A stretch of DNA of 30,575 nucleotides from Chlamydiales bacterium (GTDB lineage Bacteria > Chlamydiota > Chlamydiia > Chlamydiales > JAAKFR01), in NCBI GenBank assembly GCA_022601475.1, contig JAJACO010000155.1:1-30575 (forward strand). The letters are read 5' to 3'. This document shows positions 4,239 through 30,575 of the stretch, piece by piece. Each line of letters starts with the position of its first letter. Within the stretch, counting starts at the first letter, position 1. The position numbers and the translations under genes are program-made. Under the pieces are notes generated by a model. That model worked only from the letters and a program-made list of their open reading frames with translations. It was not told the origin of the DNA and ran no database searches.

Positions 4239-4850
4239 ATGAGTGGTCTTTTTATTGGGATGCCTTGTTTTTTTAGACAACTGGATACAGATGGCCGCTG
4301 TCAAAGCTTTACACAGACTTCTCAAAATGATTGGGTTTACTGTTTAGAACTTCTGCAGCCCGATACAATGGCTGTTGTAACCGGAAGTGAGCTCAGCTTG
4401 TTTTCTCCTCCCAACAATAGAGGCAGATGGACGCAAGGACTCCCTCTAATCAGAGAAGAAGGGACAAGAAATTCGAAGCAAAGACCTCATATTTCATCTA
4501 TTTGTAATTTAGGAAATAACAAAATAGTCTTAGCAGACTTCTGTGGAAAGATAAAAACAGTCGATTATTTTACAGGAAATATAGAGAGCGTTTATGACGA
4601 ACATGTGGGACGTGCATGGAAAGTTGTGAAAATCGAAGAGAAACTATTTGCAAGTTGTGCAGATGACGGCAGTATAAAAATATGGGACATTCGAGCAGAT
4701 AAGAGTGTGCTGACGTTTTCAGGCTTTCCTGGGCGTGTTTCTAATCTTCTGTATCTTGATGATCAACAGGTTCTTGTAGCGGGATCCTGTCCCGATGATA
4801 TCCGAAGAGCTGTTGATAAAGCGCAGTTAGATTTCATAGAAATCAGGTAG
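4239..4850 (+). CDS. WD40-repeat (beta-propeller) protein, probably a 5'-truncated remnant
   Basis: Clear WD40 repeat EHVGRAWKVVKIEEKLFASCADDGSIKIWDIR, plus GFPGRVSNLLYL...LVAGS. The frame stays open upstream to 4080 with no ATG and encodes a further WD-like segment. AT-rich (17/60 G+C at 4501-4560). Confidence 0.7.
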   Translation: MSGLFIGMPCFFRQLDTDGRCQSFTQTSQNDWVYCLELLQPDTMAVVTGSELSLFSPPNNRGRWTQGLPLIREEGTRNSKQRPHISSICNLGNNKIVLADFCGKIKTVDYFTGNIESVYDEHVGRAWKVVKIEEKLFASCADDGSIKIWDIRADKSVLTFSGFPGRVSNLLYLDDQQVLVAGSCPDDIRRAVDKAQLDFIEIR

Positions 4851-4932
4851 GTATGGACTGCTGGTGTCAATTTAAAAATAAGGGATTTATAGATCTTGCT
4901 TTAAGCTTCTGCAAGAATGCGATTGAACTGAT

Positions 4933-5248
4933 CTACTAACAGGATGGGCAGGATCCGCCTGACGGCGGGCAAGATAGGCAGTGAGGATTATACCCATTAT
5001 GAAGAAACTGCGTTTGCCTGAAAGGCGATAGTGAACAAAGAGAATTCTTCTTCTGAAAAAGGACTCTTTTTAAGAGAAATCCAAACAAATTCCCTTTTTC
5101 AGAAGAAGAATTCTCTTTGTTCATGGTGTCGCTTACGCGACATAAACGCAGTCTACCACCTTTATTGAACAAAGCTTGAGATTAAAAAATCATTTTATCC
5201 TGCCTATCCTGCCCACCGTTAGGTGGATTTTGCCTATCATGTTAGTAG
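4933..5248. repeat. Nested palindromic element: 49-bp imperfect terminal inverted repeats around a four-way junction with a perfect 31-bp stem
   Basis: 4933-4981 versus the reverse complement of 5200-5248: 41/49 identical. 5032-5062 is the exact reverse complement of 5093-5123. 5007-5015 pairs with 5144-5152. Mini-hairpins at 5016-5026 and 5127-5142. Confidence 0.92.
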
Positions 5249-5328
5249 AATCATCGGATGGAGATTTTAGAGAAAAAATTTATTTGCGTGCTCTTAGATT
5301 GACACCATTGAGGCATGGACTGTTTGTT

Positions 5329-6285
5329 TTAACTCAGATTGCGTTTGTACCATTCCACGAAGTGCCCTAGACCTGTTTCTAGATCGGTGACGGGGTTATA
5401 TCCCAATGCGCGTTGAGTCTCTTCAATATCGGCAAATGTTGTTTCAACCTCTCCTGCGCTTGCCCCTTTAAGCACAATCTCTGCTTTTTTATGGAGTAGC
5501 TTTTCGAGTATAGCTACAAATTCTAAAAGAGGAACAGGTTGATGGTTGCCTAAATTGAAAAGCGCATACTCTGTTTGATAATCAAGCGCCGCTAAAATGC
5601 CCTGCACCACATCTGCGATATAGGTGAAGTCACGTTGCATTTTACCCTGGTTAAATAAATGGAGTGGTTTGCCCTCCAAAATTGCCTTTGTAAATGAGTA
5701 ATACGCCATGTCGGGTCGTCCCCACGGGCCATACACGGTAAAAAAGCGTAGTCCAACAGAAGAAATGCCATAAAGATGCTGATAGGTATAAGCCATCAGC
5801 TCGTTTGCTTTTTTTGTTGCCGCATATAGGTTCGCAGGCTTGTCTGTCCGATCAGCAACAGCAAATGGAATTTTTGTGTTTCGTCCATACACAGAAGAGG
5901 AAGAGGCGTAGACAAGCTTGATGTGCGAAAAATGACGCAAAGTTTCTAAAAGAGATAAAAATCCTTCAATATTGCTCGCTATATAAGCCTCGGGATTTTC
6001 TCGCGCATAGCGCACTCCAGCTTGTGCAGCTAAGTTAAGCACATGAGTGAAAGGGTGTTTTTCAAAGAGTTTCCCCAGCCCCAGGCGGTCATTGAGATCA
6101 AGAGAGACAATTTCGATTCCTTTATCTCTTAGGTGCTGAGCTCTTTTATTTTTAAGTTCTACAGAATAATACGCATTAAAATTATCTAAGCCAATCACGG
6201 TATGCCCTTGCGCTTTGAGTTCAAGAGCTGTGTGAAAACCAATAAATCCAGCGGCACCTGTAATGAGAACAGTTTTTTTTGTCAT
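5329..6285 (-). CDS. UDP-glucuronate 4-epimerase (extended SDR)
   Basis: [18 protein letters not shown]-like [60 protein letters not shown]. Confidence 0.88.
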
Positions 6286-7281: not shown

Positions 7282-8637
7282 ATGAAGATTTTGGTTGTGG
7301 GAACGGGGTATGTAGGGCTTGTCACAGGCGCCTGTTTTGCAGAAATGGGGCATCAGGTCATTTGTCTTGATATCGATCAAAAAAAAATCCTTAAACTTAA
7401 AGAGGGGATCATTCCCATTTTTGAGCCGGGTCTAGAGGAGCTTGTTAAGCGTAATGTGGAAGAGGGACGCCTTGAGTTCTCAACAGATTATGCGTATGGA
7501 GTGGCCCATGCTCTTTTTTGTTTTATCGCTGTTCCTACACCTGCAGATGAAGATGGCTCTGCGGATTTGACTTACCTAAAAAAAGCAGCCTCTCAAATCG
7601 CCGAGCAGATGGATGGGTACAAAATTATTATTAATAAGTCCACCGTTCCTGTGGGATCTGCTCAAGTTGTCAAAACTGTCATTGCTCAAGAGTTAGAGGC
7701 AAGGGGGATCTCGTATGAGTTCGATGTGGTTTCTAACCCCGAGTTTTTAAAAGAAGGGGATGCCATTGTAGACTTTATGAAGCCCGATCGCATTGTGATT
7801 GGGACAGAAAATCCTCGCGTAGAAGCGTTGATGGAGGAGCTGTACGCCCCCTTTAATCTCAATCACGATCGCATTTTATTTATGGATCCTTGCTCCGCAG
7901 AGATGACAAAGTATGCAGCTAATTCGATGTTAGCTGCGCGCATTTCATTTATGAATGAGGTGGCTCAAATCTGTGAGCAGGTGGGAGCGGATGTCCGTTT
8001 AGTGCGTAAGGGCATGGGCTCTGATTCTCGCATTGGGCACGCCTTTTTATACGCTGGCATGGGGTATGGAGGATCGTGCTTTCCAAAAGATATCAAAGCT
8101 CTGCGTGCAACAGGGAGAGAAAATCAATGCGCCACACCTCTTCTAGATGCTGTAGATGCCGTTAATTACACCCAAAAAGAGCGTTTGGGAGATAAGATAA
8201 CTGCTTATTTCTCGAAAAAAGGGGGGCTTGAGGGCAAAACAGTGGCCATTTGGGGTTTGAGCTTTAAGCCCGGCACCGATGATATGCGCGAAGCGCCCGC
8301 TCTTGTGTTAATTCGTCAATTATTAGAGGAGGGAGCTTTTGTCCGTCTTTATGACCCTGTCGCAATGCCAAATGCGCGCCAGTTGCTAAAAAAATCACCC
8401 CAAATCACCTTTTGTCGCAACCCTTTTGAAACGTGTAAGGGAGCGCATGCCATCGCACTTGTCACAGAATGGAAGCAATTTCGATTTATCGACTTCAACA
8501 AGGCGCTTCCTCTGCTCGAAGAAAAAGCCTTTTTTGATGGGCGCAATCAATATACTGCAAAAAGCATGGAAGCTTTGGGTTTTGATTATTTTAGTATTGG
8601 ACAGCCAGAAAAAAAATTGCAACTTGTCCTTTCATGA
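7282..8637 (+). CDS. ugd: UDP-glucose 6-dehydrogenase (start set at ATG 7282)
   Basis: MKILVVGTGYVG, IAVPTP, NKSTVPVG, SNPEFLKEG, AEMTKYAAN, catalytic GYGGSCFPKD, GLSFKPGTDDMRE, FFDGRN. Confidence 0.96.
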   Translation: MKILVVGTGYVGLVTGACFAEMGHQVICLDIDQKKILKLKEGIIPIFEPGLEELVKRNVEEGRLEFSTDYAYGVAHALFCFIAVPTPADEDGSADLTYLKKAASQIAEQMDGYKIIINKSTVPVGSAQVVKTVIAQELEARGISYEFDVVSNPEFLKEGDAIVDFMKPDRIVIGTENPRVEALMEELYAPFNLNHDRILFMDPCSAEMTKYAANSMLAARISFMNEVAQICEQVGADVRLVRKGMGSDSRIGHAFLYAGMGYGGSCFPKDIKALRATGRENQCATPLLDAVDAVNYTQKERLGDKITAYFSKKGGLEGKTVAIWGLSFKPGTDDMREAPALVLIRQLLEEGAFVRLYDPVAMPNARQLLKKSPQITFCRNPFETCKGAHAIALVTEWKQFRFIDFNKALPLLEEKAFFDGRNQYTAKSMEALGFDYFSIGQPEKKLQLVLS

Positions 8638-30472: not shown

Positions 30473-30575
30473 TGAGACCGTTGAACAACTCAAGCTTTGC
30501 GTCGTTTTGGAACCTTTTTGCCCCATTTGAAAGATCTCTCGCTCTCTGTACCATATGTACTATCTTCGCTCGAGA
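30473..30575. repeat. Left part of a long palindromic (RPE-like) dispersed element, cut by the window end
   Basis: Shares its terminal 31 nt with 13913-13943. Central GTAC-CATAT-GTAC hairpin (30548-30560); TCTCG (30537-30541) pairs with CGAGA (30571-30575). Confidence 0.6.

Follow-up and report, generated by a model that had tools for sequence, protein, structure and literature searches.

The window (the whole 30,575-nucleotide stretch of Chlamydiales DNA analysed here) contains two convergent genes, at 4239-4850 (+) and 5329-6285 (-), with repeated DNA between them. Per-base coverage by other copies from the same genome is zero up to position 4849 and from 5310 on, and is positive only at ~4855-5309, so the repeat occupies the entire gap between the stop codons at 4850 and 5329. 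This coverage rises and falls in steps: ~14 copies at 4870-4929, ~40 per strand at the arms, 20-30 over the core and 2-8 at 5250-5309. The original prediction had placed a 316-bp nested palindrome between convergent genes. The position is correct and the palindrome is present in the sequence, as the inner part of a 451-bp gene-less composite; its ends are not the limits of the element, since repeated DNA extends from ~4855 to 5309 and is accompanied by further outer inverted ends and a direct repeat. The features are listed below in order of position.

4850-4860, no strand: left flanking direct repeat GGTATGGACTG, candidate target-site duplication (read directly; 10/11 match to 5312-5322; at most 1 nt from the element end)
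4861-5311, no strand: non-coding composite of 451 bp that fills the space separating the convergent genes (from coverage profile, reading frames and fold)
4862-4875, +: outer (layer 1) inverted end, left, TGGTGTCAATTTAA; inverted pair with 5294-5307
4870-4931, +: left sub-terminal module, common to ~14 other copies
4932-4981, +: left arm (layer 2), CAGGATRGG-like 9-mers in tandem, the second unit carrying an inserted GC hairpin (inverted-repeat detection; ~40 copies per strand in the genome)
4955-4968, +: left arm hairpin CCGCC-TGAC-GGCGG (read directly)
5007-5015, +: P1, 5' half, ACTGCGTTT; pairs 9/9 with 5144-5152; invariant in 15 copies
5016-5026, +: small hairpin GCC-TGAAA-GGC (read directly)
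5032-5062, +: 31-bp stem, 5' half; 31/31 paired with 5093-5123
5063-5092, no strand: 30-nt loop, in 'flip' orientation in the window copy; the reverse-complement 'flop' form is found in 8 of 18 classifiable copies
5093-5123, +: 31-bp stem, 3' half; pairs with 5032-5062
5127-5142, +: small hairpin TGTCGC-TTAC-GCGACA; stem invariant among copies
5144-5152, +: P1, 3' half, AAACGCAGT; pairs with 5007-5015
5200-5249, -: right arm (layer 2), inverted copy of the left arm at 84% (inverted-repeat detection)
5213-5226, +: right arm hairpin CCACC-GTTA-GGTGG, the genome's sole copy with this compensated pair
5250-5293, -: right sub-terminal module ('class a'), common to ~7 other copies
5294-5307, -: outer (layer 1) inverted end, right, TTAGATTGACACCA; inverted pair with 4862-4875
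5312-5322, no strand: right flanking direct repeat GGCATGGACTG (read directly)

The two outer ends form an inverted pair at 93%, and a check for target duplications found the 10/11 direct repeat abutting both ends of the composite. By our own arithmetic (not a tool output), a match this good arises by chance with a probability of ~4e-4 over ~50 registers. We regard the repeat as the probable target duplication of a 451-bp insertion (4861-5311). The stop codon TAG (4848-4850) of the upstream gene shares one base with the start of the left direct repeat, which places the insertion directly after the upstream reading frame; this gene encodes 203 aa with a weak match to WD40 repeats. Within the window copy no reading frame exceeds 78 aa, and there is no transposase frame. 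Folded as DNA, positions 4850-5322 reach -108 kcal/mol (z = -14.3).

The inner 316 bp largely have the architecture first described for them. The terminal arms, initially given as inverted copies matching at 41 of 49 positions, were recovered as two 50-nt segments that are 84% complementary. Each arm carries a small hairpin, and the G:C to A:T change on both sides of its stem was borne out; the inserted segment measures 14 nt rather than the 12 nt proposed. Another copy in the genome (C122) shows the half-step CCACC...GGCGG of this change. The hairpin sits between the second and third 9-mer, and its sequence varies by genome (CCGCC/GGCGG, CGCC/GGCG, CGGC/GCCG, AGCC/GGCT and one long variant), with loops that are often of stable tetraloop types, for example TTCG, or GNRA on the other strand; some arms lack it. 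The predicted four-way junction is also there: P1 pairs at 9/9 positions, the stem at 31/31 around its 30-nt loop, and small hairpins are present at both 5016-5026 and 5127-5142. The minimum-energy DNA fold of 4925-5255 is a rod with this junction, at -91.7 kcal/mol against -31.3 +/- 3.9 for shuffled sequences (z = -15.4). The suggestion that the small hairpins could instead pair with each other (GCGATA/TGTCGC), allowing rod and cruciform forms to interconvert, did not hold up, as this pairing is kept in just 6-7 of 15 copies and is thus no conserved feature.

A repeat family in the host genome

The host assembly is a draft of 1.68 Mb in 197 contigs (85% complete, 42% G+C). A BLAST search with the window element returned 94 matches in its own genome, which merge into 74 places, so the element is not single-copy. 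About 10 copies are full length and 81-91% identical to the window copy, which itself reads as an old one. With 45 of the 394 contig ends stopping inside a copy (more than one in ten), this one repeat explains the poor assembly and is a main cause of its fragmentation.

Each of the 29 internal copies sits in a gap between long reading frames, the flanking genes being convergent at 9, tandem at 12 and divergent at 2; copies point either way relative to the genes next to them. Many copies are mosaic or have internal deletions. In three deleted copies (C154:10401-10615, C91:3942-4121 and C17:9704-9874) the breakpoints coincide with short direct repeats (GAAGAA, TTATG), as expected for deletions at long hairpins. 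One copy (contig C20, ~8070-8120, locus L005) contains a ~45-bp hairpin unit (GAGACC...GATCTC), apparently with an ACTTTG duplication, and related units flank several other copies.

Outside the host, the parts of the element differ in their reach. Among one genome each of 185,579 species, an arm 21-mer matched only two chlamydial metagenome-assembled genomes, one of them deposited as Waddlia chondrophila, and the core (P1 with the hairpins) occurred only in the window's own genome among 41 genomes compared. A search of a plasmid collection gave no match to the element. Within the host assembly, no long high-identity repeat of more than 350 bp was found that could be a hidden insertion sequence.

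Paired changes and two loop orientations in the central hairpin

The 31-bp stem is perfect in 13 of 19 copies, though its sequence differs between copies. In an alignment of 15 copies, 6 of the 31 pairs are changed on both sides, including transversions such as A:T to C:G; 99.4% of stem cells are paired, and none of 500 shuffles reached the observed covariation. P1 and the two small hairpins never vary and are therefore uninformative either way.

We next consider the loop, whose orientation can be read against the asymmetric flanks. Among 18 classifiable copies, 10 are flip and 8 are flop. A tree of the flanking sequences leaves the two states unclustered, with 6 changes on 13 tips (the tree is poorly resolved and has no strongly supported branch). 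A single origin of one loop state costs 14.3 log-likelihood units (p-AU 0.016, again on this weakly resolved tree). Because the tree is weakly resolved, the unclustered states favour repeated inversion of the loop without proving it.

The arms show a different pattern. They lie 218 nt apart and are only 84% complementary, and diagnostic differences set left arms apart from right arms in one copy after another. Upkeep of close but not of distant inverted repeats fits hairpin template switching or recombination between the hairpin halves, by which one half would be copied onto the other and the loop flipped; for the perfect short-range hairpins and the two loop orientations taken together, this is the explanation we prefer. 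The same pattern of paired stem changes fits selection on a local RNA or DNA hairpin equally well. Precedents for flip/flop states or for inversion at inverted repeats are the terminal hairpins of parvoviruses, the inverted repeats of plastids and quasipalindrome template switching in E. coli. The likeness to these systems lies in a stem perfected by copying one half and in a loop found ~1:1 in both orientations; the difference is that the hairpin here would be internal to a chromosomal repeat with no known replication role, and its inversion is suggested by the comparison of copies.

A more far-reaching idea, to which we give rather long odds, is that either the segment with the 31-bp stem is actively inverting, its loop flipping time and again in living cells while one stem half is re-copied from the other, or the 9-mer arms, which many chlamydial families share base for base, are the ends for a type of transposase unlinked to any known IS family. 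If the inverting hairpin were real, it would offer a natural system for bacterial tolerance and repair of long perfect palindromes. Compensated stems together with two loop orientations make the family a concrete, testable example of palindrome maintenance.

Three end types and the search for partner transposases

To describe how the layers relate, we treat each pair of ends separately. The arm end, AACAGGATRGGCAGGAT, searched as a 17-mer pattern, was present in 35 of the 301 genomes sampled from the order, spread over many families, with 0 hits for a reversed control pattern; it was not found in the sampled ~1.1-Mb genomes, which we took to be genus Chlamydia. Some genomes hold 40-115 arm matches at one mismatch. 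In these other genomes, arm ends bound elements of 56 to ~430 bp whose insides are unrelated to the window core. Simple arm elements have TA on both flanks in seven cases and GA/TC or AA/TT in other genomes. A TA duplication at the arms is likely; since TA is self-complementary and GA/TC and AA/TT flanks also occur, it is inseparable from an extension of the inverted repeat. Two other duplications were considered and dropped, a 5-bp one by analogy with IS982 (the flanks share only TA) and TTA/TAA (a misfit, because the flanks are inverted, not direct). At loci L054-L068 (in G215, G041, G194, G217 and other genomes), arm elements have an A-run at one border and a T-run at the opposite one, which makes them look like two-way terminators; their neighbours, judged by eye from the DNA, include what are presumably groES (L068) and dnaA (L064).

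The outer end, AATGSTGTCAAYTTAAG, occurs in 10 of 151 genomes of Chlamydiales (0 control hits), where it bounds simple miniature inverted-repeat transposable elements (MITEs) of 132-470 bp. Three of seven such elements examined have clean 10-11-bp duplications, for example GATTGAACGCT, in agreement with the duplication at the window copy. As the ends of each layer are found alone elsewhere, the nested palindrome can be traced to small elements landing inside one another, with the composites then copied as units.

A third type of end, ACCTGAACTTYGGGTTT, bounds the youngest subfamily in the host genome, with 18 right ends at a median identity of 96%. The 15 right ends listed lie within ~170 bp of a contig end, each with a different unique flank, most of them ending in TANTA. 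ACCTGAACTTYGGGTTT is identical to the ends of three IS982-family elements of 1018-1023 bp in another genome, G111. These elements carry a 292-aa IS982-family transposase (NCBIfam NF033520, 1.8e-83; Pfam PF13612), and their 5-bp duplications are TACTA, TAATA and TAAGA. The three copies are at L085:337-1354, L086 and L087, with ends ACCTGAACTTTGGGTTT, and G111 holds ~60 further matches to the transposase, mostly stop-broken or partial. In its ends and its type of duplication, the G111 element matches the youngest host subfamily and not the window copy, which is without recognisable ACCTGAACTTYGGGTTT ends and has the other outer end type with a 10/11-bp duplication.

An autonomous partner with matching ends was identified only for this third end type. 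No close homologue of the G111 transposase is present in the host assembly, where the best match is 29% identical, lies on contig C146 and has different ends. It belongs to an insertion sequence of 1161 bp (C146:748-1908, L089), bounded by 26-bp inverted ends (88%), whose 282-aa transposase is a distant relative of IS982/IS5 types; no other full-length transposase gene was seen in the host assembly. None of the genomes examined yielded a transposase gene with the arm motif or the outer-end motif at its flanks. Candidates from the host and from arm-rich genomes (IS630-family, PF13358; ISAzo13-family, PF07592; other IS982-family, PF13612; and the C146 insertion sequence) have unrelated ends. A 5.3-kb stretch between inverted arms in G033, a genome of the same order, considered as an autonomous element, contains housekeeping genes only.

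A possible sign of mobility is the young subfamily with its different unique flanks. A search for empty sites, one of the checks proposed with the original prediction, recovered none: orthologous gaps in same-genus relatives of G194 were not alignable, and the predicted empty-site junction of the window copy had no exact match in metagenome contigs.

A probable layered MITE and its alternatives

We conclude, with a probability of roughly 85%, that positions 4861-5311 of the window are a MITE-type transposable element, 451 bp long, non-coding and non-autonomous, and built of nested miniature elements. It would have inserted into a ~27-bp gap between two convergent genes and duplicated ~11 bp of target. 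Layer 1 would be the outer ends (TGGTGTCAATTTAA type), layer 2 the 50-bp arms and layer 3 the core with its perfect 31-bp hairpin, so that the 316-bp finding corresponds to layers 2 and 3. The arm 9-mers, interrupted by a small GC hairpin, are putative transposase-binding sites. Copies would spread passively by transposases acting in trans, by analogy with IS982 in G111 for the third end type, and presumably likewise for the outer ends and the TA-flanked arms. The identities first proposed included such a unit, MITE-like, mobile and non-autonomous, and copy number, inverted ends, the lack of a transposase frame and the flanking duplication all agree with it.

The other identities put forward account for parts of the same evidence. 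A structured RNA, either a small RNA gene or a cis-acting 3'-end stabiliser or terminator repeated by chance, would explain the paired changes in the 31-bp stem by selection on the RNA fold. It would also suit an arm hairpin that is fixed in place, changes its sequence across genomes and has stable tetraloops, copies that lie mostly just downstream of genes, and arms that elsewhere in the order are often bordered by A-runs and T-runs like two-way terminators. An Rfam search of the element, however, gave nothing at the gathering threshold; the best match, to a plant miRNA model, scored 52 bits where the threshold is 83, and all matches were of the generic long-hairpin type, which we treat as noise. 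A promoter and terminator scan found no promoter-like site inside the element, its only terminator-like feature being the arm hairpin with its weak T-run. Copies face either way relative to their neighbours, are often deleted or mosaic, and have the loop in both orientations, which alters an RNA but not a DNA palindrome; the flanking duplications and the IS982 counterpart indicate transposition. We therefore consider an RNA improbable. REP/BIME/REPIN repeats, too, form mosaic groups of small palindromes between genes, chiefly downstream of them, and the window family resembles them in this respect. Such units are imperfect palindromes of 20-40 nt whose head is GTAG or CGTC and which a RAYT (Y1 HUH) transposase mobilises as single-stranded DNA. 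The host genome (85% complete) has no match to the Y1 transposase family PF01797, the units here are without a GTAG/CGTC head, and the family has long true inverted ends with 9-mer arrays and direct-repeat duplications beside the outer ends, all of which makes a REP-type unit very unlikely.

We give almost no weight to a retron msr-msd-like unit or an integron attC-like site, a likeness that had been drawn from the layout of outer inverted repeats, small hairpins and one long hairpin. The window lacks a reverse transcriptase, as had been noted, and the host genome has two matches to the reverse-transcriptase domain, a complete one on contig C16 and a short one on C143. The C16 protein (434 aa, intact frame) has a maturase (GIIM) domain and is a group II intron protein: it lies inside a complete 1929-nt group II intron RNA (C16:152-2080, L112; Rfam RF00029, 53.4 against a threshold of 40; RF02005, 49.9 against 49). 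This intron is inserted into arms rather than set beside a single msr-msd, and the element exists in ~70 copies, not at a single locus. As to integrons, attC cores consist of R''/R' sites (RYYYAAC ... GTTRRRY) used by the IntI integrase; the ends of the element read ...CTAACAGG and CCTGTTAGTA, and GTTAGTA misfits GTTRRRY. Equally negligible, in our judgement, is a fold-back chimera produced during assembly. The draft is fragmented, many of its contigs end in the repeat, and at least one join (on C16) looks chimeric; against this, the two arms match imperfectly (84%) and are asymmetric, the loop lacks palindromic symmetry, the 29 internal copies, each set in unique sequence on either side, differ from one another by 9-19%, and related elements occur in independent assemblies of other genomes, some of which consist of one or few long contigs.

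We return to the layered MITE and to its place among described elements. MITEs are small (mostly <200 bp, up to ~400 bp), lack a transposase gene, and have terminal inverted repeats, flanking duplications and many copies (Delihas 2011, PMC3184786). Measured by this description, the inner unit is 316 bp and the 451-bp composite is slightly above the usual range (PMC3184786); there is no transposase gene, the ends are inverted (93% for the outer ends, 84% for the arms), the composite has its duplication, and copies are dispersed over 74 places. Correia/NEMIS, RUP, ERIC and cyanobacterial MITEs are alike in their small non-coding form, terminal inverted repeats, direct repeats, dispersed intergenic copies and stable fold, and the simple arm-type copies share with Correia elements TA flanks without a known matching transposase. 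These known MITEs are unrelated in sequence. The window copy is larger and has at least three concentric layers, each with its own MITE family; its arms are 9-mer arrays with an inserted GC hairpin, and its host is an uncultured member of the Chlamydiae. Rickettsia RPEs and Coxiella QMITEs are likewise hairpin repeats multiplied in the small genome of an intracellular bacterium, with no sequence similarity to the window family; RPEs are often in frame inside genes, whereas here every internal copy is intergenic.

In the literature searched, we found no published description of MITEs in Chlamydiae, and the Waddlia genome paper mentions only "numerous repeated sequences" (PMC2878342). In itself such selfish DNA is ordinary; for this phylum it is apparently undescribed. 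MITE families of this sort seem widespread in environmental chlamydiae, and the element documents one of them, for which one type of end has its IS982 counterpart identified. Its layered build points to small elements that land inside one another and then multiply as a unit. For annotators, it is a caution that hairpins of this kind are not to be taken for RNA genes.

The arms also appear to serve another mobile element. The 5' junctions of the group II intron on C16 and C91 (C91:4122) both lie directly after an arm 9-mer (...YATCC). Joined, the 5' exon on C91 and the 3' exon on C16 give a complete right arm, which makes it probable that contig C16 is a chimera of two intron copies. The intron evidently uses the arms as landing sites, so that one mobile element gives another a safe place to insert. 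A different repeat, which is very abundant, lies at window positions 30533-30559 and at ~40 other places, mostly near contig ends; it surfaced as matches to positions 46-78 of a probe taken from contig C58.
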